Source: a virus
Length of the DNA: 64,000 nucleotides
Strand: one strand, 5' to 3'
Virus record (IMG/VR): IMGVR_UViG_3300033402_000312
The position numbers and the translations under genes are program-made. The notes beneath the pieces were generated by a model. The model did no database searches. It saw only the letters and a program-made list of their open reading frames with translations, and was not told the DNA's origin. Below, piece after piece: positions 23,621 to 45,187 of the stretch; position 1 is the stretch's first letter, and each line of letters begins with the position of its first letter.

Positions 23621-26600
23621 TTGCCCACTTCCGACAATTCGCAAGCCAACGAGATTCACAGCTACCTGTCCCGGCTTTTCAAGCCCGGAGAACTGATCGA
23701 GTACCGCGCCCTGCTTTGGGGCGGGGGCGGTCGCGGGCTGTACTTCACGGATTTGGATCGCTTGGCGGAAGTCGTTGCCAAGCTTGACCAAGACTCCCGC
23801 GTCCAATCCAGCTACGTGGTCATCAACCCGCTGAAAGGACGCCTCATCCGCGAGCGCGAATTGGCAGTGAACCCGACCGACGAGCAGGTGGAGCAAGTCA
23901 TCGCCGGCCCGGGGGGACAGACAGCCAGCAACGACGACATCGACATCCTGCGGTGGATGTTCATCGACGTGGACACCGTACGCGCTCCGGGCTTCGAGAA
24001 GGAGCCTGCCACGAACGAGGAGAAAGCGCGGTCGAAAGCCGTAGCTGTACGCGTGCTCCAATTCCTGAAGGAAAGAGGGTGGCCTCAGCCCATTGTCTGC
24101 GATTCGGGCAACGGCTGGCACCTTTTGTTCCTCATCAACCTTCAGAACACGCCGACGAACTTCCACAACGAGGCGGATTGCCTCAAGGCGCTGAAGGCAA
24201 AGTTCGACTGCGAAGACGCCAACATCGACGCGAGCGTGTTCAACCCAGCCCGCCTCACCCGCGCCTACGGCAGCACCACGCGCAAGGGCACCAACACGCC
24301 AGAACGCCCGTACAGGCGCAACAAGATGCTGGACTCCCGGCAGCCTGTCGGCGACGTCACGCTGGAAATGCTCCTCAACTTGGCTGTAGACTCGCCCGGC
24401 TACAGTAAGGGAGGCGGCGACCTGCCCGAGCTTGCGCAGGGCTTCAAGCCGTACGACTTCATCGACCATTACGTGAAACAGGGAGCCTTCGAAATCGAAG
24501 GCGAGAAGGAATGGCAGGGCAACCCCATCCTCGCCACCAACTACTGCCTTTTCGCAGGGCGCAAGCACTCCGGTGACGAATTCAAGTCAGGGTTCGTGAT
24601 CGGAGACACCTTCGGGTACAGATGTTTTTCGGATGACTGCGAAGGTCTCGGTCTTAGGGACGCCCAGCGCATCTTGGACGAGATAACGAACGAGGATGGC
24701 TCGAAAAAGTACATTCCTTTCGGTCAACCCATCTTCGAGATGGACCGCATCGCAATCGAGCAGAATTTCGCCAAGATGCTGGCTGACGGGGATATAGTAT
24801 TGGCCTCCGAAGCGGAAATCGCTGAAAACCAAAAGAAGCAGGACAAAGTGGATGAGGCTATGGTGTCCACGAAGCCTGCTCAAGAGCCAGAAAAACCTGA
24901 GGAGCAAGCAGCTTTAGGCGTGCCTGTCGAAGCCCCAAGCCCTGAGCCGAAAGACGACATGCCCAAGTGGGTAAAGGGCGAAAAAGCATTGGACGATCTC
25001 GGAATAATCGTCAACAACTTGGCGACCGATGTCCTGCGCATCGTGTTCCATCACCCCACGGAGGTGTGGGAGGACGGGTTTCTGCTCTACATGAAGCGCA
25101 TCAAGACAAAGCTGGGCTTCAACAAAAAATGGAAAAAACCCGAGGACGGTGAGGCTGCGCAGCAGACCCTCAAGATGCCCATCGGGGAGACGATGAAGCT
25201 GCTCATCAAATTCGCCGAGGCGCACAAGCGCCTGCCCGACAAAGCGACGTTCGCGCACTTCCTCAACGTATCCACCGACCCCGAGGTCATGAAAGACACT
25301 TATAAGGGAGAGGTCGTAGCTTGGGTCAACGACCTTGAAGAGCTTCCAGCCAGCATGTTCGACATGACAGCACAAGCGTTCTTGGACAGGCTCGACATCC
25401 GCGCCGAGATCGACGCATGGCGCGAGTCTTTCAGCCATTTCTTGCTAGAAGAGCACGACATCATCGGCGCACGCATGATGCTTCGCAAGCACTTCAACAT
25501 CAGCACGACGCAGGATTCTGTGTTCGAGCAGGGCGCATGGCAGGAGCGCACCGATGCGATCTACGCTTCCTTCGAAAAGAACGTCCTCGGCGTGGGCGAC
25601 GAGCGCAAGTTCAGGCTGGGTTTCCCGTCCATCGACAACTCGGGCATGAACATCGGGCTTGACGGCGACTGCGCCATCTGCCTGTGCGGCCCGGCCTCGA
25701 ACCGCAAGACCACGGCGGCGCTGTCCATCGCCATGAACTTTGCGATCATCGGGAAGAATGGTCTGTTCTTCGCGGGCGAGCACCAGTGCATGAAGGTGCT
25801 CAAGCGCCTCACGCTCCAGCTTTCGCATTTTTTCAAGGACGACCCGGAGATCGGGCACATCCCCGGTCTCCCCAAGTGGGAGGGGCTGCGCCGCACGGCA
25901 ACCGAGGAGGATTTGGTAAAGGTCAAGAAGCTCTTGCTGAGGCTCAAGTCCGGCGAACAGGTGCCCGGCTTCATCGAACCGCAAAATATCGATGCCGTGA
26001 CGCGGGGGGAGGAAGACAAAGTCGGCGCTCTCCTGCAATACGCCGAGGCGACATTCCCGAAGTACCAGTGGGAGTTCATCGTCATCGACCCGCTTGACAC
26101 CATCATGCCCCCGGAGATCACAGGCGTGAAGGGCGGCCCGAGCAATTGGAAGGTATGCTCCGGCATCATAGACAGGCTGTTTGACTTCAGCCGCAACGCA
26201 TTCGGCGGCAAAGGCTGCATGGTGATCGTCACCGCGCAGTTCGGCTCCGACGCCCGGCGCGACATCGAAAAGATTCAGCAGAAGAACTCGGGCGTCGAAA
26301 ACTTCGACGATGAGCTTGAGTCTATCCTCAAGCGCGACGGTCTTATTCAGTACTTCACGACCATCGGTCAGCGGTTCGACCTGTGCTTGGGCATCGCGAC
26401 GCGGACCAAGGACGGGAACGACGGTTTGATCGTTCGAGGCCGTGACCGTGAGGGTGGAGTGTTCAATGCTTGCTATTTCGAGGTCAACGCCGACACCAAC
26501 TACATGCGGGAGAAAAAGAAGGAGTACAAAATGCTCGATAAGGAGCAGGCAAAGGAAGCCATGGAGGCGGCTGCGCAGGTGGAGCGGTCGTTCGACCCGG

Positions 26601-26623
26601 CGCTGGCTGAGGAGGCACAGTGA
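23621..26623 (+). CDS. primase-polymerase (AEP/PrimPol domain) fused to a RecA/DnaB-like helicase-like domain
   Basis: TTG start. N-terminal FIDVD and CDSGNGWHLLF match the AEP DxD and sGxGxH motifs. C-terminal P-loop-like CGPASNRKTTAALSIA and a hhhhD Walker-B-like FIVIDPLD. Confidence 0.65.
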   Translation: MPTSDNSQANEIHSYLSRLFKPGELIEYRALLWGGGGRGLYFTDLDRLAEVVAKLDQDSRVQSSYVVINPLKGRLIRERELAVNPTDEQVEQVIAGPGGQTASNDDIDILRWMFIDVDTVRAPGFEKEPATNEEKARSKAVAVRVLQFLKERGWPQPIVCDSGNGWHLLFLINLQNTPTNFHNEADCLKALKAKFDCEDANIDASVFNPARLTRAYGSTTRKGTNTPERPYRRNKMLDSRQPVGDVTLEMLLNLAVDSPGYSKGGGDLPELAQGFKPYDFIDHYVKQGAFEIEGEKEWQGNPILATNYCLFAGRKHSGDEFKSGFVIGDTFGYRCFSDDCEGLGLRDAQRILDEITNEDGSKKYIPFGQPIFEMDRIAIEQNFAKMLADGDIVLASEAEIAENQKKQDKVDEAMVSTKPAQEPEKPEEQAALGVPVEAPSPEPKDDMPKWVKGEKALDDLGIIVNNLATDVLRIVFHHPTEVWEDGFLLYMKRIKTKLGFNKKWKKPEDGEAAQQTLKMPIGETMKLLIKFAEAHKRLPDKATFAHFLNVSTDPEVMKDTYKGEVVAWVNDLEELPASMFDMTAQAFLDRLDIRAEIDAWRESFSHFLLEEHDIIGARMMLRKHFNISTTQDSVFEQGAWQERTDAIYASFEKNVLGVGDERKFRLGFPSIDNSGMNIGLDGDCAICLCGPASNRKTTAALSIAMNFAIIGKNGLFFAGEHQCMKVLKRLTLQLSHFFKDDPEIGHIPGLPKWEGLRRTATEEDLVKVKKLLLRLKSGEQVPGFIEPQNIDAVTRGEEDKVGALLQYAEATFPKYQWEFIVIDPLDTIMPPEITGVKGGPSNWKVCSGIIDRLFDFSRNAFGGKGCMVIVTAQFGSDARRDIEKIQQKNSGVENFDDELESILKRDGLIQYFTTIGQRFDLCLGIATRTKDGNDGLIVRGRDREGGVFNACYFEVNADTNYMREKKKEYKMLDKEQAKEAMEAAAQVERSFDPALAEEAQ

Positions 26624-33648: not shown

Positions 33649-33710
33649 AGAGAGTCCAAACCAAAGATTCCAAGGGACGAACTGCAAGGCGGTTCGTCCC
33701 TTTTGCTTTT
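33625..33710 (+). terminator. rho-independent terminator with overlapping alternative antiterminator pairing (attenuator-like)
   Basis: Terminator: GGGACGAAC (33674-33682), 9-nt loop, GTTCGTCCC (33692-33700), then TTTTGCTTTT. Alternative 9-bp pairing TCCCTTGGA (33625-33633, inside the leader ORF) with TCCAAGGGA (33669-33677). This overlaps the terminator 5' arm by 4 nt. Confidence 0.5.
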
Positions 33711-33711
33711 T

Positions 33712-33787
33712 ACGCGGGTAGCTCAGCGGCAGCAGCGTCTCTCTTACAAGGAGAAGGTCGTGGGTTCAATCCCCACCCCGCGTACCA
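33712..33787 (+). tRNA. tRNA-Val (anticodon TAC)
   Basis: Acceptor ACGCGGG/CCCGCGT. Anticodon arm TCTCT-CTTACAA-GGAGA. T arm GTGGG-TTCAATC-CCCAC. CCA encoded. Confidence 0.7.
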
Positions 33788-33789
33788 GT

Positions 33790-33864
33790 GGGCCGGTAGC
33801 ATAATTGGGAATGCGCTTCCCTTGCAAGGAAGGAGAAGGGGTTCGAATCCCCCCGTGTCCACCA
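33790..33864 (+). pseudogene. tRNA-like sequence with Ala (TGC) anticodon arm but poorly paired acceptor stem (possible pseudo-tRNA)
   Basis: D arm GCAT-AATTGGGA-ATGC. Anticodon arm CTTCC-CTTGCAA-GGAAG. T loop TTCGAAT. The acceptor GGGCCGG versus CGTGTCC has two internal mismatches. Confidence 0.35.
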
Positions 33865-33955
33865 AGATCGTGCCGCCCCGGACGGCGGTAGCAGCCGGAG
33901 CCGAAAGGCTGCGGTGTTGGAGCGTCAGGCTCCTTGGGCATCCGGGCAAAAATTT

Positions 33956-34033
33956 GGAGACGTGGAGGAGTCTGGAGTCCTCGGGTCCCTGTCACGGACC
34001 AGATCGCGGGTCCAAATCCCGTCGTCTCCGCCA
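33956..34033 (+). tRNA. tRNA-Asp (GTC)
   Basis: Acceptor GGAGACG/CGTCTCC. Anticodon arm GGTCC-CTGTCAC-GGACC. T arm GCGGG-TCCAAAT-CCCGT. CCA encoded. Confidence 0.7.
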
Positions 34034-34130
34034 AGTTGGGCAACCTCGCCCCGGCAGAATGGCAGCGGCGCTGCGCGGAAGCCGGAGACAAGCGCCGGGT
34101 GCACGACCGGAGACCCAAGCGCGTTCTGTA

Positions 34131-34205
34131 AGTCGCGTAGCCAAGCGGGAAGGCGGACGCCTGCAAAGCGTCTAATCACGGGTTCGACTCCCGTCGCGAC
34201 TTCCA
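34131..34205 (+). tRNA. tRNA-Cys (GCA)
   Basis: Acceptor AGTCGCG/CGCGACT. Anticodon arm GACGC-CTGCAAA-GCGTC. T arm ACGGG-TTCGACT-CCCGT. Confidence 0.7.
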
Positions 34206-34221
34206 AGCCCGGAAAGAGACC

Positions 34222-34434
34222 GTGAGGATTCTCTACGACGAGCAGCGGCACCTGATAGCGGTCCCGTACAGCGTGGGGAACCTCCACAGGGCGGCGCGGC
34301 AACTCGGCATCAAGCGCTGCTGGTTCCACAAAGACCACTATGACGTGCCTAAGCGGATGATGGCGCGGATGCCGGAGACGGTGGCAGAAAAAGTTTCGCC
34401 GCGAGAAATAGCGAGGATCGTGCGCGGCAAGTAA
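34222..34434 (+). CDS. DUF4031-like small protein embedded in the tRNA array
   Basis: ..LHRAARQLGIKRCWFHKDHYDVPKRMMARM.. matches the DUF4031 pattern (gv.r.Wfq..HYDi). Confidence 0.55.
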   Translation: MRILYDEQRHLIAVPYSVGNLHRAARQLGIKRCWFHKDHYDVPKRMMARMPETVAEKVSPREIARIVRGK

Positions 34435-34438
34435 GTTC

Positions 34439-34513
34439 GGCACGTTCGCCAAATGGGAAGGCGGCGGTCTGCAAAACCGCGATACGAGGGTCCGATTCCC
34501 TCACGTGCCTCCA
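34439..34513 (+). tRNA. tRNA-Cys (GCA), second copy
   Basis: Acceptor GGCACGT/ACGTGCC. Anticodon arm GCGGT-CTGCAAA-ACCGC. T arm GAGGG-TCCGATT-CCCTC. Confidence 0.65.
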
Positions 34514-34519
34514 AGGTTT

Positions 34520-34890
34520 GTACTGAGCGGGACAATCGCCGCCGCGCAGATATACGCCTTTGCTTGGAACCGTGGGGAAACCCGCCGAACCAAGTCCGGC
34601 GTTGAGCGCGGGGGAGGAAAGTCCGGGCACCACAGAGCAGCGCACCAGCTAACGGCTGGGCATCGGGTCGAAAGACCGGATGACGAATAGGGCAACAGAG
34701 ACGAGCCGCTTGAGTGCGGGTGAAACGGGCAACCTCTGCGTGGTGCAATCTCAAATAGGCCGTGAGACCCTGCTCGGGTCGTTACCAAGCGGCGGGTTGA
34801 GAGCTTGAGGCGTGCAGCGATGCACGTCCTAGACGAATGATTGTCGGGCACCCTCGGGTGCTCACAGAACCCGGCTTATACGCTCAGTAC
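34520..34890 (+). ncRNA. rnpB: RNase P RNA, bacterial type A (compact)
   Basis: P1 GTACTGAGCG (5') pairs with CGCTCAGTAC (3'). Universally conserved P4 strands GGAGGAAAGTCCGGGC and ACAGAACCCGGCTTA are present. GCAACAGAGA, GGGTGAAACGGG, CAAATAGG and CTAGACGAATGATTGTC are collinear with E. coli M1 RNA. Confidence 0.9.
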
Positions 34891-34899
34891 AAAGGTTTC

Positions 34900-34973
34900 G
34901 CGGGAGTAGCTCAATGGCAGAGTGCCAGTCTTCCAAACTGGCGACGCGGGTTCGATTCCCGTCTCCCGCTCCA
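34900..34973 (+). tRNA. tRNA-Gly (TCC)
   Basis: Acceptor GCGGGAG/CTCCCGC. Anticodon arm CCAGT-CTTCCAA-ACTGG. T arm GCGGG-TTCGATT-CCCGT. Confidence 0.75.
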
Positions 34974-35041
34974 AGCTTGAGCCACCGGAGTCGCCTTAGC
35001 GGCTCCGAGAGACGCCAAGCGTCTCGCGTGGCTCTCAATTC

Positions 35042-35117
35042 GGGCGTGTAGCTCATCTGGGAGAGCGCTTCGATGGCATCGAAGAGGCGGCAGGTCCGAC
35101 TCCTGTCACGTCCACCA
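35042..35117 (+). tRNA. tRNA-Ala (GGC)
   Basis: Acceptor GGGCGTG/CACGTCC with a G3-U70 pair. Anticodon arm CTTCG-ATGGCAT-CGAAG. Confidence 0.7.
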
Positions 35118-35223
35118 AGAACTGAACGTTGCGAAGGCTTGACTCCTTGGCGGGTTTAGGGCGAAGGGTGCCATTCGTCGCAGCGTCAGTAAAGACAGGG
35201 TAGCCCATCCCGTCGCCCTGTAC

Positions 35224-35300
35224 GGGCCTGTAGCTCATTTTGGGAGAGCGTTCCCCTCGCACGGGAAAGGCGGCGAGTTCGAATCTCGTCAGGTCCACCA
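35224..35300 (+). tRNA. tRNA-Ala (CGC)
   Basis: Acceptor GGGCCTG/CAGGTCC with G3-U70. Anticodon arm TTCCC-CTCGCAC-GGGAA. T loop TTCGAAT. Confidence 0.7.
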
Positions 35301-35311
35301 AGTTTTGCAGT

Positions 35312-35389
35312 GCGCCGTTAGCTCAGCCTGGAGTGAGCGCTTCCTTGACATGGAAGAGGTCGGAGGTTCAAATCCTCCACGGCGCACCA
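35312..35389 (+). tRNA. tRNA-Val (GAC)
   Basis: Acceptor GCGCCGT/ACGGCGC. Anticodon arm CTTCC-TTGACAT-GGAAG. T arm GGAGG-TTCAAAT-CCTCC. Confidence 0.7.
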
Positions 35390-35529
35390 AAATTCATGCC
35401 GGAGGCGGAGAGATACCCGCAAAAACTCTCCGGCTCCAGTTCGGGGCTGCTTTTGTTTGATACACCCGCTGTAGGGTTAACTTATGTGATATTGCAGCCC
35501 CTGTTTTTCAGCGTCTCCGGGGGATTGAT

Positions 35530-35706
35530 ATGGGCTACAAGACGACGCAACGCATCACTCGGGACAGGGCGCTGTCGATCCTGATGCAGGAGCTTCCGCA
35601 GATGCCGAACGATGTGCTGGCGGATTTGCTGGATCGCGTCGCCGACTCGGGGCAAAGCAAGGTCGTCTCGAAGTTCGACGATTTCGTTGTGTCGGAGGTA
35701 CAATAA
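35530..35706 (+). CDS. small hypothetical protein (58 aa) inside the tRNA array
   Basis: MGYKTTQRITRDRALSILMQELPQMPNDVLADLLDRVADSGQSKVVSKFDDFVVSEVQ. GGGGGA RBS 6 nt upstream. Below the track length cutoff. Confidence 0.4.
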   Translation: MGYKTTQRITRDRALSILMQELPQMPNDVLADLLDRVADSGQSKVVSKFDDFVVSEVQ

Positions 35707-35709
35707 AGC

Positions 35710-35784
35710 GGCGCATTCGTCTAGTGGCTAGGATGGAAGCCCTTCAAGCTTCAGAAAGGGGATCGAAACCCCTATGCGCTACCA
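35710..35784 (+). tRNA. tRNA-Glu (TTC)
   Basis: Acceptor GGCGCAT/ATGCGCT. Glu-type D arm TTCGTCTAGTGGCTAGGA. Anticodon arm GAAGC-CCTTCAA-GCTTC (C at position 33). Confidence 0.6.
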
Positions 35785-35978
35785 GATTCGATCCTTGGCG
35801 GGACAAGCCAGGCAAGCTAAGGACAGGCAGACATGGAGTGTGGGAAGCTCCCGCCCGGTCAAGGCGTCGTTTTAAGTCCAAGACGTTGCCAAAAATTCGC
35901 TGCGGTGTATGGGACGGATACTTCATCATTGCCACAACGGCGACAGAAAAGAGCCGTTCCGGGTTGTTCCCAGCGATT

Positions 35979-36054
35979 GCGCGGTTAGCTCAGCGGCTAG
36001 AGCGCTCGCTTCACACGCGAGAGGCCGAAGGTCCGATCCCTTCACCGCGCACCA
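35979..36054 (+). tRNA. tRNA-Val (CAC)
   Basis: Acceptor GCGCGGT/ACCGCGC. Anticodon arm CTCGC-TTCACAC-GCGAG. T arm GAAGG-TCCGATC-CCTTC. Confidence 0.7.
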
Positions 36055-36102
36055 AAATACGTGTTAACGGAACTATCTGTTCCATCCGTAGAGGTAGTAC
36101 TT

Positions 36103-36417
36103 ATGAAGATCGGAAGCGCAAAGGTAGAAGGATTTGAAGCCAAAACCATCATAGCTGTCAGTCCACAAGAGAAAGCAGCACTTGGTCTCTTGAGTCGAAC
36201 CTCGGTGAAGTACCTTGGGGAAGTTTTGGAAACTGTCGCTTCGTATGAGGTGCCTGTAGCTACTACCGACATGGGTGGTGAAACTGTACAAGTGTTGGTT
36301 GAAAACTCAGACCTTGAGTTGCTTGATTGTCTTCATCGCTTGTTGAAGAGCGGAAATGCTGTTTGTAAGTGGGTTGAAAATGGACTTCTTGTAAACTTGC
36401 GAACAGGTATCGTGTAA
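36103..36417 (+). CDS. hypothetical protein (low-GC insert in tRNA array)
   Basis: Internal ATG of track ORF 36061-36417 with GAGGTAG RBS. Local GC is lower than surroundings. Confidence 0.45.
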   Translation: MKIGSAKVEGFEAKTIIAVSPQEKAALGLLSRTSVKYLGEVLETVASYEVPVATTDMGGETVQVLVENSDLELLDCLHRLLKSGNAVCKWVENGLLVNLRTGIV

Positions 36418-36424
36418 AGAGTTT

Positions 36425-36498
36425 GCGGCGTTGGTATAGTGGTAGCACGGGACCTTGCCAAGGTCCGGGCGCGGGTTCGATTCCCGCACGCCGCTCCA
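36425..36498 (+). tRNA. tRNA-Gly (GCC)
   Basis: Acceptor GCGGCGT/ACGCCGC. Anticodon arm GGACC-TTGCCAA-GGTCC. T arm GCGGG-TTCGATT-CCCGC. Confidence 0.75.
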
Positions 36499-36519
36499 AG
36501 TTTGTGATATAATGAGTGG

Positions 36520-36915
36520 ATGAAGGACACCACCAAGGTCGGCAACCTGACGCTTGCAAAGCTACTCGTTGCCTTAACAGAGAGGGGTAAGATCGTATTG
36601 ACGCCTTTCGGTGAGGGTGGTCGCTACGATCTGATGATCGACGAAGGGGAAAAAGTCCTCCGTGTACAGTGCAAGACGGGAAAGTTAATGAAGGATTGCA
36701 TCGTTTTCAACAACTATTCCCAGTCAGCAGCAGGCACGAAGAAGTATGGTACAAGCATAGATGCCTACGGCGTTTACTGTCCGCAGAACGGCAAAATATA
36801 CCTCGTTCCGGCAAGTGAGTGTCTCGGCTACAAGACTCGGCTTCTTATAGAACCGACTGAGGATGCTAGGAAGAAAAGAAAAAACATTCGGTTGGCGATA
36901 CAGTATGAAATTTAA
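36520..36915 (+). CDS. PD-(D/E)XK nuclease, Hjc/archaeal Holliday-junction-resolvase-like (possible homing endonuclease)
   Basis: LVALTERGKIVLTPFGEGGRYDLMIDEGEKVLRVQCKTGK fits the Hjc pattern (G..V.R..GS.G.PDlia..g.k.l.iEvK). Low-GC insert between two tRNA-Gly genes. Confidence 0.45.
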   Translation: MKDTTKVGNLTLAKLLVALTERGKIVLTPFGEGGRYDLMIDEGEKVLRVQCKTGKLMKDCIVFNNYSQSAAGTKKYGTSIDAYGVYCPQNGKIYLVPASECLGYKTRLLIEPTEDARKKRKNIRLAIQYEI

Positions 36916-36989
36916 GCGGGCGTCGTACAATGGCAGTATAGAGGCTTCCCAAGCCTCGGACGTGGGTCCGATTCCCATCGCCCGCTCCA
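36916..36989 (+). tRNA. tRNA-Gly (CCC)
   Basis: Acceptor GCGGGCG/CGCCCGC. Anticodon arm GAGGC-TTCCCAA-GCCTC. T arm GTGGG-TCCGATT-CCCAT. Confidence 0.7.
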
Positions 36990-37002
36990 AGATCGGAGAG
37001 GC

Positions 37003-37164
37003 ATGAACCGAGAAACGGACACCGAGGAAAATAAGCTTCCGGCGACGGTGAGCACAGATTTATTGTTGGAGATGGTCCGCAAGCTGGAAAGCCGGGTGCG
37101 TGCCCTCGAAGAAAAGTCGGAGGACTTGGATCACCGAACCGTTGGTCTGGTGCGCCTTGGGTGA
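37003..37164 (+). CDS. small hypothetical protein (53 aa, coiled-coil-like)
   Basis: GGAGAGG RBS. MNRETDTEENKLPATVSTDLLLEMVRKLESRVRALEEKSEDLDHRTVGLVRLG. Confidence 0.3.
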   Translation: MNRETDTEENKLPATVSTDLLLEMVRKLESRVRALEEKSEDLDHRTVGLVRLG

Positions 37165-37169
37165 CCGGG

Positions 37170-37325
37170 ATGCCTAAGCTGCGCAAGAAGACGAAGGGCA
37201 TCAAGTTTCGCATCGTTCATGTTCAGTACGATGCCACCGGCGAGCACAAGATGGTGGTGCTTGTGAGGGGGGAGAGAATCCCCAAGGGCTGGCACAAAGC
37301 AAGAAACAAGATTTCGGGCGTGTAG
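37170..37325 (+). CDS. small basic hypothetical protein (51 aa); its stop lies inside the next tRNA
   Basis: MPKLRKKTKGIKFRIVHVQYDATGEHKMVVLVRGERIPKGWHKARNKISGV. The stop TAG is within the 5' end of tRNA-Ala. Confidence 0.25.
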   Translation: MPKLRKKTKGIKFRIVHVQYDATGEHKMVVLVRGERIPKGWHKARNKISGV

Positions 37326-37391
37326 CTCAACTGGGAGAGCGTCGCATTTGCAATGCGGAGGCAGCAGGTTCGACCCCTGTCACGTCCACCA
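37316..37391 (+). tRNA. tRNA-Ala (TGC)
   Basis: Acceptor GGGCGTG/CACGTCC with G3-U70. Anticodon arm TCGCA-TTTGCAA-TGCGG. T arm GCAGG-TTCGACC-CCTGT. Confidence 0.7.
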
Positions 37392-37396
37392 ATTTT

Positions 37397-37471
37397 GGCG
37401 CTATGGTCTAGGGGCCTAGGACGCGACCCCCTCAAGGTCGAAACACGGGTTCGAATCCCGTTAGCGCTGCC
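37397..37471 (+). tRNA. tRNA-Glu (CTC)
   Basis: Acceptor GGCGCTA/TAGCGCT. Glu-type D arm. Anticodon arm CGACC-CCCTCAA-GGTCG. T loop TTCGAAT. Confidence 0.6.
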
Positions 37472-37476
37472 AAACT

Positions 37477-38199: not shown

Positions 38200-38877
38200 A
38201 TGCCCCGAGTAGTTCTTATCGCCGACACCCACGGTCTCCACGACAGGATGACGCAGCCTGTCCCCGAGGGGGACTTGCTGATCCACGCCGGGGACTTTAC
38301 GAACGTGGGACGCGTGAACGAAGTCGTCGCCGCTGGCGTATGGCTCCGCAAGCTTGGGAAGAGGTTCCCTGCCGGGGTCGTGATCGTCGCGGGCAACCAC
38401 GACTGGATGTTTGAGAAGAACCGATTTATGGCAGTACAATTGTTGAATCAAGGTCTGCTTGGTAATGAACGCGTTCCCGAAATCATCTACCTTGAGGATA
38501 GCGGGGTTGAGATAAAAGGCCTCAAGATATACGGAAGCCCTTGGCAGCCGTCTTTCATGAACTGGGCGTTCAACCTCGACCGTGGCGAGCCGCTCCGCAG
38601 AAAGTGGGACTTGATCCCCGAGGGCTTGGACATCCTGGTCACGCACGGGCCGCCGATGGGAATCCTCGACCAGACCAACCCGGTTCTCGGCACCGAGCAC
38701 GTTGGGTGCGAGGAACTCATCAAGGCGGTCAAGCGGGCGAAGCCGAAAGTCCACGTCTTCGGCCATATCCACGGGGGCTACGGCAGGGCGCAATACCAGA
38801 ACACGCTGTTCATCAACGCCGCGATCTGCGACGAGGCGTACAAGCCTTGGCGGGAGCCTGTCGTCATTGATTTATGA
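38200..38877 (+). CDS. metallophosphoesterase (calcineurin-like)
   Basis: ADTHG, GDFTNVG, GNHD, THGPP and GHIHGGYG are the MPP motifs. Confidence 0.85.
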   Translation: MPRVVLIADTHGLHDRMTQPVPEGDLLIHAGDFTNVGRVNEVVAAGVWLRKLGKRFPAGVVIVAGNHDWMFEKNRFMAVQLLNQGLLGNERVPEIIYLEDSGVEIKGLKIYGSPWQPSFMNWAFNLDRGEPLRRKWDLIPEGLDILVTHGPPMGILDQTNPVLGTEHVGCEELIKAVKRAKPKVHVFGHIHGGYGRAQYQNTLFINAAICDEAYKPWREPVVIDL

Positions 38878-38887
38878 TAGACCTATT

Positions 38888-39061
38888 ATGAGACACATGT
38901 GCCAAGCCTACGATGACGGTGTCCATCAATGCGAGGAGCCTGCCGTTAACTTCATTGAGATAGCCGATGACATGGACGCGCCGCTTGACACCACTGTTTG
39001 GTGGATGTGCGCCCGGCACTGGGACAAATGGCAGAAAGAGAGCCAAGAGAATGAAAGGTAA
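38888..39061 (+). CDS. small protein with CARHWD motif (paralog of the 57309-57548 product)
   Basis: MRHMCQAYDDGVHQCEEPAVNFIEIADDMDAPLDTTVWWMCARHWDKWQKESQENER. Shares EPAV(N/D)F..AD...... (M/L)CARHWD with the ORF ending at 57548. Confidence 0.4.
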   Translation: MRHMCQAYDDGVHQCEEPAVNFIEIADDMDAPLDTTVWWMCARHWDKWQKESQENER

Positions 39062-39314
39062 CCCGCAGATTGCTGCCATAGCCTTCCTCGTGAAGAAGTT
39101 CGGCGAGAGGATTCCGGGAGGGTACGAGGTGCGCGTGACGGCTCTTGATTTGCACGAGATGTCGCCGCATGGCATATTCCAGGAAGTGCCCGACATCAAC
39201 GGCAAGGGGGTGCGCTGGCAGTACTTCCCGAACGTCACCATCGACCTCAAACCGGGCGATTGGAAGGAGTCTGCGCCGGACGATAAGACGCTGCCGGAGA
39301 AGACCGACAAGTGA
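39051..39314 (+). CDS. hypothetical protein
   Basis: Internal ATG of track ORF 38967-39314, overlapping the previous stop. Confidence 0.4.
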   Translation: MKGNPQIAAIAFLVKKFGERIPGGYEVRVTALDLHEMSPHGIFQEVPDINGKGVRWQYFPNVTIDLKPGDWKESAPDDKTLPEKTDK

Positions 39315-39901
39315 TTGACCCTTACGATTTGACGAAGCCTTGGGACAAAGTGCGCCTCCAGGAGTGGTTCGTCTTCGGCGTGTGTGTGCCGGGCAAGAGC
39401 GCCCGGCAGACCGCCGAAAAGGTCGAGGCGATGCTGGAGGACATGCGGGGCGTCACCCACAAGGCGCTCCCTGGCGCAGAGTACAGGAAGAACACGCCGT
39501 TCGGCTGCATCCGCACGGCGATGGCTTTCGGCAAGCTAGGCTGGTACCTCCGCAAGCACAGGCTCGGGCAGTACAGGCGCATCGGCAGGGCGCTGCGCGG
39601 CATGGTCTGGATCGACCCGGCGACCGCGACGCTGGAGGAGCTTGAGGCGATCCACGGCGTCGGCGCGAAGACCGCCCGGATGCTCCTGCTCTACACCCGC
39701 CCGGATCAGGAGATGATTCCGTTGGACACGCATGTGCTGAAATGGCTCCGCGCCCACGGCTACGACGCCCCGAAAAGCACCCCGCCCCCCGGCAAGAAGT
39801 ACCGCGAGCTTGAGGCTGCTTTCATCCGCGAAGGCAGGAAGCGCGGGCTGACCGCTAAGGAGTGGGACAAGGAGGTATGGCAGCGGTCCGCCAAAGGCTG
39901 A
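39311..39901 (+). CDS. HhH-GPD superfamily DNA glycosylase-like protein
   Basis: LEELEAIHGVGAKTARMLLLYTRPDQEMIPLDTHVLKWLRAHGY is a helix-hairpin-helix GPD motif. The DTHV motif is present. Confidence 0.6.
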   Translation: MIDPYDLTKPWDKVRLQEWFVFGVCVPGKSARQTAEKVEAMLEDMRGVTHKALPGAEYRKNTPFGCIRTAMAFGKLGWYLRKHRLGQYRRIGRALRGMVWIDPATATLEELEAIHGVGAKTARMLLLYTRPDQEMIPLDTHVLKWLRAHGYDAPKSTPPPGKKYRELEAAFIREGRKRGLTAKEWDKEVWQRSAKG

Positions 39902-40323
39902 TGTTCATCCTAGTGCTGCTGCTCCGCCTCCTGTGGCAATTGCATCCGTCCCTGCTGACCTGCGCCCTGTTTTGGGTCTTCGTCGCGGAATACTGGTACA
40001 TCGTCCCCACCGACTGCAAGATCAACTGGTGGTCTAGGTCGCTGACGCTGGCTGGCATGTTCATGAACGCCGTCGTCACCCTCGCCAACAATGGCAGGAT
40101 GCCGTACCTCGGCGGCGGTCGTCCCCGCTCCATCTGGGTTGCGGGGACCGGCAAGCGCTTGCTGTTCCTTTGCGACCGCTTCGACGGCTTCAGCATAGGC
40201 GACTTCTTCATCATCGGCGGGATTGCCGCCGCCTTCCTGTTTTGGCTGTACCGCATCCCCGCTGGCAACGAGCGAACCGGGATGCTTTTATCCGGCGAGC
40301 GGACATCGAAGAAAATCCCCTAA
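39901..40323 (+). CDS. membrane protein (about 4 TM)
   Basis: ATG overlaps the upstream stop (ATGA). Hydrophobic segments MFILVLLLRLLW, LTLAGMFMNAVVTLA and FFIIGGIAAAFLFWLY. Confidence 0.45.
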   Translation: MFILVLLLRLLWQLHPSLLTCALFWVFVAEYWYIVPTDCKINWWSRSLTLAGMFMNAVVTLANNGRMPYLGGGRPRSIWVAGTGKRLLFLCDRFDGFSIGDFFIIGGIAAAFLFWLYRIPAGNERTGMLLSGERTSKKIP

Positions 40324-40389
40324 ATTCAGCGTTTTCCAACAGCAAATAGGTTCCGCGACTTCGGTTTCCTTCCATTAGAGGAGAAGCCT

Positions 40390-40950
40390 GTGCCAACCGC
40401 CTTGCCCATCCCAAAGCTCGCGGCGACCCCGATGATCCCATCGCGGTTCAAGAATGGGCTTCTCCAGCCCAATCCCGGCAAGGCAAGGCTCATGGCCGAC
40501 CTCCGCGACGCCTACGCCGAGATTGCCGGAGAATGGGAAGAGTCGGGCGACCCCAAGGAACTGTACCAGTTCGCCGAGCCGAAGACGCGGGAGCTTCTCC
40601 TCGGGACGGAAGAGGACGCCAACGCCATCCACGATTTCGACACCGCCTCCATGTACGCGCACAGCGGCAACTGGAAGATGGCGAGCCAATACCTTGGCTA
40701 CGCGCTGAGGAAGGTCGCCGAGAAGATCGAAAAGCTGGGCTACGGGTACGATGTGTCCGGGGAAGTCCAAATGGGCGGCGGCACAAGCGGGGAAGGGCGG
40801 CACCTTTGGGACACAGGCAACTCCCCGAAGCACGACCACACCCAAAACAACCCGTCCGCAATGTCGCTCGACGCCGAGGCTGAATCCGATTACCCCGAGC
40901 TTGCCGAGTTCAAGCACAAGCGAGTCCACTGGCCCCCGAGGACAAGGTAA
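40390..40950 (+). CDS. hypothetical protein
   Basis: 186-aa ORF. No motif recognised. Confidence 0.45.
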   Translation: MPTALPIPKLAATPMIPSRFKNGLLQPNPGKARLMADLRDAYAEIAGEWEESGDPKELYQFAEPKTRELLLGTEEDANAIHDFDTASMYAHSGNWKMASQYLGYALRKVAEKIEKLGYGYDVSGEVQMGGGTSGEGRHLWDTGNSPKHDHTQNNPSAMSLDAEAESDYPELAEFKHKRVHWPPRTR

Positions 40951-40952
40951 AA

Positions 40953-43412
40953 ATGGCTCCGGTTCAAGTATGCATTTTTAATCCAACCACCACCCTCATC
41001 GACCAAGTGACGGCTGCGTCCACCGGGCCGGGCGTCGCCGGGCAGCCGGTAGTGCTCAACCCGCTGGGTCTCATCGACCCGACTCTCCTTGGGCAGGGCG
41101 TCATCGCGACGGCTGGGCAGAACCTCAGCGCCGGGAATCTCGTCGGCCTGTACAACCAGGCCGGGACGCTCCACATGCAGCTTGCCTTCGCCGCTGGCAG
41201 CGGAACCGCGCCGTCCGGCGCAATGTACCCGGTGCCTGCTGCGGGCTTCGTCTCCTCCCAAGTTTTCACGGGGTTCACGGGGGAGGTGTCGTTCAGCGGC
41301 ACGTTCGTGTACATCGACGGAAACAGCGAGTTCAGCCCTAGCGACATCGGCACCATCGTGTTTCTGTCCGCCGTCACGCCGGGCGGCGTGACCAAGACTC
41401 CCCCGACCAGCGGGTCGCCTCCCATCGGCCCGCTTTCCCAGTCGGTCGGCTACGTCGTGGGCTTCGCCACGCCGAACAAGGTTTCCATCGCCTTTAGCGC
41501 GGCGTTCCTTGACTTCACCCAGATCAACGGCATCCTTCCGATCACCAAGGGCGGCACCGGGGCTACGACAGGAATACAAGCCTTGGCCAACCTGATCGGC
41601 GAGTTGCCCTCGGCTTTCCTTTACGTTGACGGCAGCCGGACGGACGCGTACACCCCGGACGGCACGCAACTTTTGCCGTTCAAATCCATCATGGCGGCGG
41701 TCAATCGGGTCATAGCGAACGGCAACAATGCCACGGTTCCCTATACGATTTCCGTGGCTCCGGGGACTTACGCGGAAACGATTGATGTGGGGAATGCTGC
41801 CTTGTACAGCCTTGTTTTTACGGGCTACGGGGAGGCGGGCCCCATTTCCGCAAGCGCTGGGGCGACCGTGCTTGCGGGTGTCCGCGTCGCCCCCGCATCC
41901 GGGAACTCCCTGCAAAGCACCGCGAACAACACGCAGCTAGCCACCCTTCAGTTCAGCGGGTTCCTGTTCGCGAATCCTATTGACTTGACGTGCCCCACCA
42001 ACAACGGGGGATTCGGCAGCAGTGTAGTTTCCTTTAGCAATTGCCACTTCGAGGACAACGGCTCGTCCCCTACTTTTACCTTCAACAACATCGGCAATCT
42101 GTTGTTCTCCAATTCCGCTGTGGGCGGCCCCCCGGCTAACAACACGACGACTGTGGCTTTAACAAACATTTTGGGTGCCCTGTGGATAGGCAGCGACATG
42201 AATGGCGGAACCCTCACTGTCCTGACTGATATAACTCAACCTGTCCCCGTGAGCTTTCCTCCTTTTGAGGGCACGGAATTATTGATCTCAGGGTGGGCAT
42301 GCAATCCTGGAACTGTGACTATCTCGGGCGTTGGCTCAGTCGTCATCGTCAATCAAGGCTCGTTGGGCAGTTCTGGCGGCACAATCACAGTGGGTTCCGG
42401 GGCGTTTTTATTCATGGAAGCCGGTTCTGAGCTTGCCTCGAACGTAACGGTGGATTCCGGGGGGACGCTCGAAGGCAACGGGGTTCTGGACGGGACTCTG
42501 ACGGTAAACGGCACCTATACACCGACCGGGGTGCTTTACGCGGCGGGGGTTGTATTGACGTCGATCACCTCCAACGGCGGGGGCATCACCATCGAAGACA
42601 CTGCCGGTGGTGGCGTCGTCATCGACGACACAGGTGGGGGGACGATCAGCATTGCGCCTACGTCGGAAAAAGCCGCTTTCGGTAGCTACTCCACTCCGCC
42701 AGTTGCCGGGCAAGTAGTCATCGGGGCTTCCTCGGGCGGTCTCAGTGGTTTCAGTCAACTTACACTAGAAACAAGGGGTGCCCTTGGTTCTGCAACAATC
42801 AATCTTGGCGGTGTGGGCCTCTTTGCCTTAGCATCAGGTCAGAACCTTTCGATAGACCATTCGGTGGCGATAGGACCGGTGGGCGTGTTAGGCGGCTCCA
42901 TATCCTTTTTTGGCTCTCCTCAAGTCAATCACGTTGCATCAATCGGCGTCTCTGCCACCGCTGGCAACCCCAGCCAGATCAACCTGCCTACCGCCACAGG
43001 GTCGGCGGGCACATTCCTGATGACGGACGGCGGAAACCCGCAGCAGACCTCATGGGATTCTCTGCTGACCGACAACGGCACGACCCTCTCTTACACGGGC
43101 AGCGGCGGCTTCGTAGCTGAATCGCTGACCATCGAGGGACACTTCAACAGCAACAACACTACGGATTTCTCTGGCACAGCTACGATCCCCGGCTCGCCTC
43201 CATCCGCTTCGGTGACTGTCTCCTTTGGTTCCGCTTTTACGGGCACGGCCCCCCCTTTGGTGGTTGTGACGCCAACGAGCGACCCCACGGCAACGGGGGC
43301 GTATTGGGTTGTAGTCAGCGGCGGCCCCGGGAATTGGACAGGATTCACCATTCACGTGCATGCTGCGGGAGCCATTTCCTTTAACTATATCGTGATAGGA
43401 AACGGCTCGTAG
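40953..43412 (+). CDS. tail fibre / receptor-binding-like protein (beta-helix, Gly/Thr/Ser-rich)
   Basis: 819 aa. PITKGGTGATTGIQAL matches the common phage tail-fibre KGGTGAT motif. Long stretches of G/T/S/N/V repeats. Confidence 0.5.
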   Translation: MAPVQVCIFNPTTTLIDQVTAASTGPGVAGQPVVLNPLGLIDPTLLGQGVIATAGQNLSAGNLVGLYNQAGTLHMQLAFAAGSGTAPSGAMYPVPAAGFVSSQVFTGFTGEVSFSGTFVYIDGNSEFSPSDIGTIVFLSAVTPGGVTKTPPTSGSPPIGPLSQSVGYVVGFATPNKVSIAFSAAFLDFTQINGILPITKGGTGATTGIQALANLIGELPSAFLYVDGSRTDAYTPDGTQLLPFKSIMAAVNRVIANGNNATVPYTISVAPGTYAETIDVGNAALYSLVFTGYGEAGPISASAGATVLAGVRVAPASGNSLQSTANNTQLATLQFSGFLFANPIDLTCPTNNGGFGSSVVSFSNCHFEDNGSSPTFTFNNIGNLLFSNSAVGGPPANNTTTVALTNILGALWIGSDMNGGTLTVLTDITQPVPVSFPPFEGTELLISGWACNPGTVTISGVGSVVIVNQGSLGSSGGTITVGSGAFLFMEAGSELASNVTVDSGGTLEGNGVLDGTLTVNGTYTPTGVLYAAGVVLTSITSNGGGITIEDTAGGGVVIDDTGGGTISIAPTSEKAAFGSYSTPPVAGQVVIGASSGGLSGFSQLTLETRGALGSATINLGGVGLFALASGQNLSIDHSVAIGPVGVLGGSISFFGSPQVNHVASIGVSATAGNPSQINLPTATGSAGTFLMTDGGNPQQTSWDSLLTDNGTTLSYTGSGGFVAESLTIEGHFNSNNTTDFSGTATIPGSPPSASVTVSFGSAFTGTAPPLVVVTPTSDPTATGAYWVVVSGGPGNWTGFTIHVHAAGAISFNYIVIGNGS

Positions 43413-43444
43413 TTCAATTTTCAAAACCTGTTGTATCTAGCTAG

Positions 43445-45187
43445 ATGTTTCTGCTCCCCTCCCTGTATACTAAGGCTGGAGGGAACGTGGCAGACGCAGC
43501 CAAAAACCCTGTCCAGACCGAGCCAGCCAAAAACCTCGCCTTCGAGCGCTCGAACAACCTGCGCGACCATTTCCCCTTTGCCGAGGTTCGCGGCAACCAA
43601 AACCCCACGCTTGACAAGCTGGCAAAATGGGTTTCTTCTCCCCAAAAATTCTTCCTGTTGGAGGGTCCGACCGGATTCGGAAAATCGCCCGTGGACATCG
43701 CCTGCGCGTCGCACGCAAAGACGTTGCCGAGCTACGGCGAGTTCAAGCCGGGCGCGTACATTTTGACGCCGCAGAAGACCCTTGCCGAGCAGTACATGAG
43801 GGACTTCGCCTCGATGGGGCTGGTGGAACTCAAAGGCCGCGCCAACTACCGCTGCGACAAGTGGAGCCAGATCACAGGCGAGGAAGTGGATTGCGAGATC
43901 GGCGCATCCCTCAACGAGTCCTCCGGCTTGGAAGAAACGTGCAGGTTCTGCCCGTACCGCGCCGCCAAGAGCGCCTTCATGGACGCCCCGTTCGGCACGA
44001 CGAATTTCGCGTACTTCCTGAACGAAACGAACCATGCCGGGCAGCTTCCCAACCGCAACATGCTGATCTTGGACGAGGGGCACAACACCGAAGACCATAT
44101 CCTTTCGCTGACCGACACCGAGCTTAACCAGCGGCGCTGCGACGAGTACGGGGCGGGGAAGCTGCCTGTCTTCCATGCCGGGGACAACGAGAGAGTCCTG
44201 ATATGGCTCGACGACGTGTTCGTCCCCGCCGCAATCGCCTACGGGAGCAGGCTGGCGAAGTCCTTCCGCGAAGCCCGCGACGAGGAGCGCATCAAAGTCA
44301 TCCGCAAGCAGAAAGCGCTCGACAACTACCTGTCGCGCATCAACATGTTTCGCAACGCGGCTGACCCCGGCGAGTGGTTCGCGTGGTCTGACTGGCAGGA
44401 AAACAAGAATACCGGCAAATTCCACGGCACGGGCGACCTGTTCATCAAGCCGCTGACCGCCCGGCTGTTCGCTGACGACTTGCTTTTCTCGAAGGCGCAG
44501 AAGGTGCTGATTACTTCCGCGACTATCCTCGACTTCAAGACGTTCATGCGCAACCTCGACATCGCCGAGCGCGACGCGCAGATTCTCGCGGTCGATTCCG
44601 AGTTCCCGGTCGAGAACCGCCCGATATTCTACCGCCCGGTCGGCAGCATGTCGTACAGGAACATCGACGCCACCCTGCCTTTGATGGCGGTAGAAATCGA
44701 GGCGCTGCTCACGCGGTACATGGCGAAGAAGGGCATCATCCACACGAACTCCTACAAGGTGAACCAGTACATCACGCGCTACCTGATGAGCACGGGCCAT
44801 GCGCACCGCATCATCACGCACGACAGTTCAAAGGGCGCACGCGAGGCGGCGCAGAACCGGCACTTGACCTCAAAGGAGCCGACCATCCTATGCTCGCCCT
44901 CCATGACCGAGGGGCTGGACTTGAAAGAGGATTTGAGCCGCCTCCAGATCGTCTGCAAGGTTCCGTACCCTGCGCTCGACCCGTACACCCGCGCACGCAT
45001 GAACCGCGACCGCCGCTGGTACTCTTGGCAGACTGCGCTCAAGCTGGAGCAGGGCACAGGGCGCAGCGTCCGCAGCAAGACCGACCGCGCCCACACCTAT
45101 GTCCTTGACTCCGATTTCTCCGACTTCATCCAGAAAAACAACCGCATAATGTCGAAGTGGTGGCTGGACTCCATAATTTGGAGGTAA
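43445..45187 (+). CDS. DinG/XPD-like Fe-S DNA helicase (likely start GTG 43487)
   Basis: Walker A LEGPTGFGKS. DEGH box LILDEGHN. Four-Cys Fe-S module C..C..C..C (NYRCDKW..CEIG..CRFCPY). C-terminal Helicase_C_2-like GTGRSVRSKTDRAHTYVLD. A promoter-like TGTATACT plus GGAGGGAAC RBS precede the GTG. Confidence 0.8.
   Translation: MFLLPSLYTKAGGNVADAAKNPVQTEPAKNLAFERSNNLRDHFPFAEVRGNQNPTLDKLAKWVSSPQKFFLLEGPTGFGKSPVDIACASHAKTLPSYGEFKPGAYILTPQKTLAEQYMRDFASMGLVELKGRANYRCDKWSQITGEEVDCEIGASLNESSGLEETCRFCPYRAAKSAFMDAPFGTTNFAYFLNETNHAGQLPNRNMLILDEGHNTEDHILSLTDTELNQRRCDEYGAGKLPVFHAGDNERVLIWLDDVFVPAAIAYGSRLAKSFREARDEERIKVIRKQKALDNYLSRINMFRNAADPGEWFAWSDWQENKNTGKFHGTGDLFIKPLTARLFADDLLFSKAQKVLITSATILDFKTFMRNLDIAERDAQILAVDSEFPVENRPIFYRPVGSMSYRNIDATLPLMAVEIEALLTRYMAKKGIIHTNSYKVNQYITRYLMSTGHAHRIITHDSSKGAREAAQNRHLTSKEPTILCSPSMTEGLDLKEDLSRLQIVCKVPYPALDPYTRARMNRDRRWYSWQTALKLEQGTGRSVRSKTDRAHTYVLDSDFSDFIQKNNRIMSKWWLDSIIWR

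Follow-up and report, generated by a model that had tools for sequence, protein, structure and literature searches.

Ever since the classic T4 work, the precursors of phage tRNAs have been taken to depend on the ribonuclease P (RNase P) of the host (reviewed in PMC11143913), an enzyme that is itself treated as universally cellular. A 64,000-nucleotide (nt) stretch of viral DNA, IMG/VR record IMGVR_UViG_3300033402_000312 (hereafter the window, meaning this whole stretch), raises the question of whether some phages bring the ribozyme of this enzyme with them, which would extend the viral takeover of translation back to RNA processing. Wedged between two tRNA genes in the middle of the window lies an RNase P RNA gene. 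On the evidence set out below, we consider that it encodes a functional RNase P RNA that is borne by the phage, is under selection and serves the maturation of tRNAs, and assign this reading a probability of roughly 0.77.

An RNase P RNA gene between two tRNA genes

A cmscan search of the whole window against Rfam returned one RNase P match, to RF00010 (RNaseP_bact_a), at positions 34524–34890 of the plus strand. The match covered model positions 1–367 of 367 and scored 186.6 bits (gathering score 100; E value 1e-58). RF00010 was the best-scoring member of its clan, class A being favoured over the class B, archaeal and nuclear models. The remaining Rfam matches in the window were 15 tRNAs only, all on the plus strand between 33712 and 37472. 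A preliminary description of this locus had placed the RNase P RNA at 34520–34890, 6 nt downstream of a tRNA-Cys gene and 9 nt upstream of a tRNA-Gly gene; the full-model match bears out these coordinates, and both distances were reproduced exactly with the tRNA ends assigned by ARAGORN. Helix P1 can be extended by 3 base pairs (bp), UUUGUACUGAGCG pairing with CGCUCAGUACAAA, which gives an RNA of 377 nt and shortens the gaps to 3 and 6 nt. The predicted minimum free energy (MFE) of the RNA is −174.4 kcal/mol, with a z score of −5.18 relative to shuffled controls. The gene and its direct neighbours are:

34517–34893, plus strand: RNase P RNA gene, bacterial class A with a reduced specificity domain, 377 nt (RF00010 match, hand-mapped structure, covariation in 15 lineage members, MFE z score)
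34439–34513, plus strand: tRNA-Cys(gca), CCA encoded, directly upstream (ARAGORN; same neighbour in 19 related loci)
34900–34973, plus strand: tRNA-Gly(tcc), CCA encoded, directly downstream (ARAGORN; same neighbour in related loci)

Architecture of the RNA

The window RNA is a bacterial class A RNase P RNA whose catalytic core and substrate-binding elements are intact. Its structure, mapped by hand onto the sequence from the cmscan alignment, comprises P1 (13 bp), P2, P3, P4, P5, P7, P8, P9 (with a GAAA loop), P10, P11, P12 (4 bp) and P15–P18. The joining strands J3/4, J18/2 and J2/4 were also found, together with J11/12 (ACAGAGA), J12/13 (GGUGAAA) and J5/15 (GCAA), and both L9 and L18 are GNRA loops. 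The catalytic-domain helices P1, P2, P3, P5, P15 and P18 follow one another in canonical order. The P4 pseudoknot with its bulged U is formed by GAGGAAAGUCCGGG and ACAGAACCCGGCUUA, and both strands are present in the window RNA. The collinearity of P1, P4 and the core with bacterial type A RNA, noted in the preliminary description, thus holds in detail: both P4 strands, J3/4, J5/15, J18/2 and J2/4 occur in consensus order. The mapped elements, all on the plus strand, are:

34517–34529, plus strand: 5′ strand of P1, pairing with 34881–34893 (13 bp; double, compensatory changes in 9 of the 13 pairs in the lineage)
34548–34605, plus strand: P3 extension of 58 nt, three stacked sub-helices with a GAAA cap loop (appears as a 50-nt insertion against the Rfam consensus; also seen in the MFE fold)
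34619–34627, plus strand: 5′ strand of P4, AAG-U-CCGGG with a bulged U, pairing with 34870–34877 (CCCGGCUU) (read from the sequence)
34635–34639, plus strand: 5′ strand of the P6 pseudoknot, GAGCA in J5/7, pairing with the L17 loop UGCUC at 34771–34775 (covarying states in the lineage)
34640–34741, plus strand: specificity domain, P7–P11, J11/12, a 4-bp P12 (34706–34719) and J12/13 (cmscan alignment, covariation)
34749–34802, plus strand: P15–P16–P17, with the L15 GGU at 34795–34797 (cmscan, hand mapping, covariation)
34809–34828, plus strand: P18, 8 bp with a GCGA (GNRA) tetraloop (double changes in 5 of the 8 pairs)
34846–34863, plus strand: extra P19-like hairpin between the 3′ strands of P2 and P4 (cmscan, hand mapping, MFE fold)

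In class A enzymes, a GGU in the internal loop of P15/P16 pairs with the 3′-RCCA of the substrate. The P15 and L15–L16 elements, singled out earlier as features to look for, are present as the P15–P16–P17 arm listed above, and the GGU of L15 is invariant across the lineage. It matches the CCA encoded by all 15 tRNAs of the surrounding array, with which it would be expected to pair.

The gene had also been called complete, which is accurate for the catalytic core and for every known substrate-contacting element, but not for the specificity domain, which is trimmed. P13 and P14 are deleted at 34725/34726, where 43 model positions align to 0 nt, and are missing from all 15 lineage members; P12 is reduced to 4 bp. 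These two helices are typical of class A but variable and outside its minimal consensus, and Lui et al. (2021, PMC8172020) describe the loss of both, and of P18, as ‘not unusual’ in bacteria, so the lack of P13 and P14 does not bar the window RNA from this class. The two expansions vary within the lineage (L followed by a number labels related loci and contigs). The P3 extension of the window RNA is not found in most relatives, and L114 and L107 have other P3 extensions; the P19-like hairpin differs in length and sequence among relatives and is missing from L004 and L031.

Selection on the structure

Fifteen distinct sequences of the lineage were aligned with MAFFT and scored against a hand-specified structure of 79 pairs (P1–P5, P7–P12, P15, P16 and P18, with P4 entered as a pseudoknot); P17, P6, the P12 loops, P3 and P19 were out of register in this alignment and were handled separately or omitted. 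Of 1176 cells, each being one sequence at one pair, 97.8% were paired, as against 32–42% when the 3′ partners were slid by 1–3 columns, a percentage that is inflated both by the structure having been taken from one of the aligned sequences and by the relatedness of the sequences. The measure least inflated by kinship and by the source of the structure is the count of compensatory changes, and this count is high: changes on both sides occurred at 39 of the 79 pairs, in 108 cells. Not one of 500 shuffles matched the observed pairing, double-change counts or covariation score.

Both pseudoknots are maintained. All eight pairs of P4 are 100% paired in the 15 sequences, with a single compensatory change, from G-C to A-U, in L129. 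P6, a class A feature, occurs in three covarying states (GAGCA/UGCUC, GAACA/UGUUC and AAGCA/UGCUU), with a perfect 5-mer match in 13 of 15 sequences. Covariation was also seen in P2, P5 and P15 of the catalytic domain and in P7, P8, P9, P11 and P12 of the specificity domain. The RNA is under selection for its structure, and the high count of compensatory changes rules out a decaying pseudogene.

Phage genes on both sides

Approximately 30 kb of phage genes lie on either side of the RNase P RNA gene. The left half of the window, on the minus strand, carries tail genes, a lipoprotein-like gene and several large open reading frames (ORFs) of no known family. The right half, on the plus strand, encodes a DnaD-like loader, a class II ribonucleotide reductase (RNR), a sigma factor, the tRNA array, a phosphoesterase, a helicase, an exonuclease subunit of DNA polymerase, a UvsX-like recombinase and SbcC/SbcD-like nucleases, the block from RNR to nucleases spanning 28109–60119. 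The gene order of the tail module and the replication module are syntenic with those of the cultured jumbo phage Tunturi_5 (host Tunturiibacter), and the helicase is 44% identical to that of Tunturi_5. The main features are:

14982–16490, minus strand: lytic tail protein with an SLT domain (PHROGs and/or Pfam scan)
16491–19790, minus strand: tape-measure protein homologue, 1099 residues (the tape-measure protein of Tunturi_5 is its only tblastn match among 50,697 phage records)
28109–32613, plus strand: class II RNR through sigma factor, the backbone upstream of the array (67–87% amino acid identity and same order in L002, L127, L115, L119 and L004)
38200–45187, plus strand: phosphoesterase, HhH protein, 819-residue protein and helicase, the backbone downstream of the array (52–79% identity and same order in L004, L134, L031, L107 and L093)

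No bacterial housekeeping gene was found among 40 ORFs scanned with PHROGs and/or Pfam, of which 30 were larger ORFs from throughout the window and 10 were small ORFs at the array. The RNase P RNA gene sits inside a phage genome: tail and replication genes on its two sides, the synteny with Tunturi_5 and the recurrence of the arrangement in relatives confirm the earlier view that it is phage-borne, and exclude that it belongs to host sequence flanking a prophage.

Conservation within a lineage of large phages

When IMG/VR was scanned for the P4 strand together with its adjoining 3′ sequence, four viral contigs came up, all with an RF00010 match inside a tRNA array. A search with an 18-mer that is specific to the lineage and spans the P16 and P15 3′ strands brought up 7 viral stretches and 44 from metagenomes. 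In all 19 loci from IMG/VR and metagenomes that have the RNase P architecture and both flanks, the order is tRNA-Cys(gca), RNase P RNA, tRNA-Gly(tcc), with spacers in the lineage of 0–3 nt upstream and mostly 5–11 nt downstream; L129, for which only the upstream flank is present, has tRNA-Phe in place of tRNA-Cys. The other stretches holding the 18-mer were set aside as chance matches lacking RNase P features.

The window RNA is 75–88% identical to its 15 lineage relatives and 55% identical to Escherichia coli M1 RNA. The flanking proteins are conserved in sequence and order (RNR 80–87%, sigma factor 48–71%, phosphoesterase 69–75% and helicase 52–79% identity). One locus of the lineage lies on a 463-kb contig, and the exact helicase protein occurs on contigs of up to the 0.2–1 Mb size class from soil or peat assemblies. 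A search for related loci with the 1000-residue protein encoded at 23621–26623 gave no match.

Across 185,579 species-representative bacterial and archaeal genomes the 18-mer had 24 matches, none of them in an RNase P RNA, and thus occurs in no rnpB there, as a test of exact sharing rather than of phylogeny. An nhmmer profile of the lineage, a rough substitute for a phylogeny, gave 287–312 bits for members and at most 94 bits for the approximately 50 other RNase P RNAs compared, M1 RNA among them. In blastn searches of 50,697 deposited phage genomes, the array matched by tRNA similarity only, and the window RNA gave nothing but short core matches to records that are unverified or look bacterial.

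Tunturi_5 (PP885688.1) has a permuted tmRNA (86.4 bits) and approximately 41 tRNAs, located at L087:461–757 and L163:22660–47244, none of which is in the feature table returned for that record.

RNase P RNAs in other phage lineages

A scan of IMG/VR for GAGGAAAGTCCGGGC returned 83 stretches, in approximately 19 of which the motif lies inside a tRNA array. The array-embedded RF00010 matches range from 300 down to 57 bits, on contigs of approximately 20 kb to 463 kb, most of them longer than 100 kb. At least six tRNA neighbourhoods were distinguished (Cys–P–Gly(tcc), Thr–P–Gly(gcc), Leu–P–Arg, Trp–P, Arg–P–Leu and Arg–P–Arg, where P is the RNase P RNA), which suggests several independent lineages or acquisitions; RNase P RNA abuts tRNAs in at least five phage lineages besides that of the window.

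These RNAs differ widely in how much of the molecule they keep. Seven (L026, L080, L081, L075, L056, L038 and L059) are near-canonical class A, scoring 253–300 bits and lying 0–2 nt from tRNAs in the Thr–P–Gly, Leu–P–Arg and Trp–P settings, on IMG/VR contigs that range from about 24 kb to 369 kb and in most cases exceed 110 kb. The RNA at L003:10596–10802, which follows tRNA-Asp on a 190,723-bp IMG/VR contig, has 207 nt and scores 118.5 bits; it keeps P8, P9 and P18 and is without P12–P14 and the P15–P17 arm, including the CCA-binding loop. The forms at L044:5635–5877 (243 nt) and L083:2248–2468 (221 nt), and that of phage A3Wally, keep P1–P5, P4 among them, and P15–P17 with the GGU, are without P18, and have the whole specificity domain swapped for 55–86 nt of unrelated sequence; they fill gaps between two tRNA genes and score 72–85 bits, under the Rfam gathering score.

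A3Wally is a cultured Microbacterium phage (MZ150783.1), in which the unannotated 221-nt form (93852–94072; L086:2991–3211; 72 bits, E value 5e-20) exactly fills the gap between two annotated tRNAs. The same form occurs at approximately 91% identity in three sister phages, namely Zooman, Big4 and one further record. A3Wally, Zooman and Big4 have M. foliorum as their host. Beyond these Microbacterium phages, blastn with ten phage RNase P RNAs against deposited phage genomes found only unverified or bacterial-looking records. One such record, Microcystis phage MaAM05 (MW495066.1; L084, about 111–119 kb), was rejected as a case of phage rnpB: the match lies among fabI, engB, mtgA and glyS, and this part of the record looks like bacterial DNA.

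That phage RNase P ribozymes form an overlooked and widespread class of viral auxiliary RNA genes, functional within the tRNA arrays of several large-phage lineages, repeatedly pared down and making maturation of the phage tRNA pool independent of the host's supply of rnpB RNA, is a broader proposition on which we consider the odds to be even.

Matches to tmRNA lie directly beside RNase P-bearing tRNA arrays at L044:1–209, L051:1–43 and L081:1759–1834, and in some phages all three kinds of RNA gene are therefore carried together. At L041:3325–3528, on a 201,951-bp IMG/VR contig, a group I intron match (68.4 bits) lies approximately 3 kb from a 298-nt RNase P RNA, in a stretch with no tRNAs.

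Proposed role in tRNA maturation

The array around the gene comprises three tRNA-Val, four tRNA-Ala, one tRNA-Asp, two tRNA-Glu, three tRNA-Gly and two tRNA-Cys genes, covering every GNN codon family, and 3′-CCA is encoded by 15 of the 15. Its extent and the hairpin that precedes it are:

33712–37472, plus strand: array of 15 tRNA genes, each for a GNN codon or for Cys (Rfam cmscan and ARAGORN; order as in L004 and L001)
33672–33702, plus strand: terminator-like hairpin, a 14-bp stem containing 8 G-C pairs with a T run after it, ending 10 nt short of the first tRNA (consensus scan only)

The reading best supported by these data is that the ribozyme would act in 5′ processing of the phage's own polycistronic tRNA transcript. 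The gene appears to have passed by vertical descent through a lineage of large phages from soil or peat, with genomes of about 100 to 460 kb, and would be transcribed together with the phage tRNAs as part of a polycistronic precursor. Co-transcription is the natural assumption, as the genes share a strand and are separated by spacers of a few nucleotides, so that any promoter specific to the ribozyme gene would fall within tRNA-Cys. The 5′ end of the ribozyme would be set by 3′ processing of tRNA-Cys, and its 3′ end by RNase P cleavage at the 5′ end of tRNA-Gly, leaving 6–9 extra nt. Host RNase P would presumably make the first cuts, after which the phage enzyme could sustain the process. The RNA would assemble with the RnpA protein of the host and cleave the 5′ leaders of the phage tRNAs. 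The phage might thereby gain extra 5′-processing capacity for its large tRNA set, or a capacity that outlasts the shut-off of host RNA synthesis. Co-transcription, the release route, the use of host RnpA, catalytic activity and the benefit to the phage are all inferred.

Several observations weigh against this assignment. A search for rnpA with a three-sequence hidden Markov model and phmmer, approximate queries that a divergent homologue could escape, gave no match either in the window or across 1.17 Mb of related loci. The partner protein is therefore probably the RnpA of the host, and an enzyme that must depend on a host protein cannot take compatibility with it as given. P13 and P14 are missing and P12 is minimal, and in other RNAs such loss weakens the stability of the specificity domain. 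The terminator-like hairpin stands immediately before the array, and a consensus scan found no clear sigma-70 promoter between it and the first tRNA. Finally, the closest cultured relative, Tunturi_5, has approximately 41 tRNAs, yet 141.6 kb of its 308.7-kb genome yielded no RNase P RNA (71.6 kb, including the tRNA arrays, by covariance-model scan and the full 141.6 kb by a P4-motif and tRNA search, with 1–117080 and 258656–308711 outside the search), which marks the gene as an accessory rather than a necessity in such phages.

Four other explanations were weighed, which even in combination are improbable. The window RNA could be a working ribozyme that does without host RnpA, being served by a phage-encoded cofactor or largely independent of protein, with the P3 and P19-like expansions as new binding or stabilizing elements. 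This would agree with the lack of a detected rnpA in the window and related loci, with the variable, lineage-specific character of the two hairpins and with the many ORFs of unknown function around the array. However, RnpA in bacterial holoenzymes contacts P2–P4, J18/2 and J2/4, all of which are conserved in the window RNA, and the extra P3 and P19 elements are missing in the close relatives L004 and L031 and so cannot be essential; we regard this explanation as unlikely. A decoy, titrating host RnpA or pre-tRNAs and blocking host tRNA maturation without cleaving anything, is a distinctly poorer prospect. Its attraction lies in the reduced specificity domain, with P13 and P14 missing and P12 short, and in the viral RNase P-like RNA without activity cited in PMC3001073. 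Yet a decoy has no need of a full core, an L15 GGU, a P6 pseudoknot and the T-loop-binding strands of the specificity domain, all of which are kept and covary here, and a place among the phage's own CCA-encoding tRNAs fits processing better than blocking.

Phages do acquire host tRNA genes, and a host rnpB might have been captured along with them as a passenger of no benefit, possibly in decay; that Tunturi_5 lacks the gene throughout the examined parts of its genome, and that other phage lineages have progressively degraded-looking versions, would be in keeping with such an origin. Against it, sequences only 75–88% identical nevertheless keep 97.8% of cells paired, with 108 doubly changed cells, and the same flanking tRNAs and protein genes recur in contigs from many samples. 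The signature 18-mer is in no rnpB of the species-representative genomes, and the lineage profile separates its members from the other RNase P RNAs compared (287–312 against at most 94 bits), which leaves the passenger explanation very improbable. The least credible explanation, to which we attach only the slightest probability, is that the stretch is bacterial chromosome, as a prophage flank or an assembly chimera, and the RNase P RNA that of the host. Some records labelled as phage do hold a bacterial rnpB, MaAM05 being an example, and many IMG/VR matches without nearby tRNAs look host-like; here, however, the gene lies mid-window, flanked by phage tail genes to the left and phage replication genes to the right, the 40 ORFs scanned included no detected housekeeping gene, and independent assemblies from many samples have the identical arrangement.

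Relation to known systems

The molecule belongs to a well-known family and is conservative in its structure; what is new is its carrier and its setting. With E. coli M1 RNA and the RF00010 family, the window RNA shares the helix order P1–P12 and P15–P18, the P4 and P6 pseudoknots, the core strands, the L15 GGU and the GNRA loops of L9 and L18. It differs from M1 RNA, with 55% identity, in the absence of P13 and P14, the 4-bp P12, the 58-nt P3 extension and the P19-like hairpin, and the phage gene is wedged between tRNAs with spacers of 3–9 nt, whereas rnpB stands alone in the annotation of E. coli K-12. A tRNA-flanked RNase P RNA gene is known from yeast mitochondria, where RPM1 lies between tRNA-fMet and tRNA-Pro, is co-transcribed with them and is freed by tRNA-processing enzymes including RNase P, the same release route that we propose for the window RNA. 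RPM1 is, however, organellar rather than viral, highly A+U-rich and strongly reduced, and its partner, Rpm2, is unrelated to RnpA. Archaeal type T RNase P RNA of Pyrobaculum is minimal and has no specificity domain. The 207–243-nt forms of other phages (A3Wally, L083, L044 and L003), which are without most or all of the specificity domain or without P15–P17, resemble it, in contrast to the window RNA, in which a specificity domain of P7–P12 is present and covaries. The RNase P RNAs of the Candidate Phyla Radiation are likewise class A with lost peripheral helices (PMC8172020), but each is the sole cellular rnpB of a small genome, whereas the window RNA is an additional copy carried by a virus and retains P12 and P18.

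Huge phages carry tRNA arrays and tmRNAs (Al-Shayeb et al. 2020, PMC7162821), which are similarly translation-support RNA genes clustered on one strand; a ribozyme that acts on those other RNAs is cargo of another sort. RNA genes in that survey were annotated with tRNAscan-SE and ARAGORN only, and RNase P is unmentioned (PMC7162821). The only virus-encoded RNase P-related RNA that we found in the literature is that of camelpox, an orthopoxvirus; as cited in PMC3001073, it has only some structural resemblance to RNase P RNA and did not cleave pre-tRNA in vitro. A decoy-like role was once proposed for it. The phage RNA is instead a full-length member of the family with an intact core. No account of a phage-encoded RNase P RNA was found in open-access full text (approximately 8 million papers and preprints), jumbo-phage reviews, PMC7162821 or a 2024 RNase P review, a scope that leaves subscription-only literature outside, and we therefore provisionally regard such RNAs as undescribed. 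A phage-borne rnpB had been called ‘rare or undescribed’; the second term stands within the literature covered, but the gene is not an isolated case, as it recurs in several large-phage lineages of IMG/VR.

Standard phage annotation, limited to tRNAscan-SE and ARAGORN, misses such genes, and the reduced forms also fall under the Rfam gathering score. Beyond self-splicing introns, we know of no trans-acting catalytic RNA gene in a virus genome, and a phage RNase P would be the first. The phage copies amount to a natural deletion series of the ribozyme, variously without P13 and P14, P18, the specificity domain or P15–P17, which bears on the long-standing question of the smallest size at which a bacterial-type RNase P RNA remains functional in vivo; the cultured Microbacterium phages offer an experimentally tractable example of a reduced form.

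Other features of the tRNA array

The second tRNA-Cys gene is set off by a 233-nt spacer and is missing from the relative L004. Further long spacers lie at 35389–35710, 36054–36425 and 36989–37316. A Pfam scan of the 10 small ORFs in or beside the array identified a PD-(D/E)XK endonuclease and an HhH motif only. The endonuclease ORF (PF11645, E value 6e-25) occupies 36520–36915 on the plus strand, between tRNA-Gly(gcc) and tRNA-Gly(ccc), and looks like a mobile insertion, because the same tRNAs are tightly packed in relatives.

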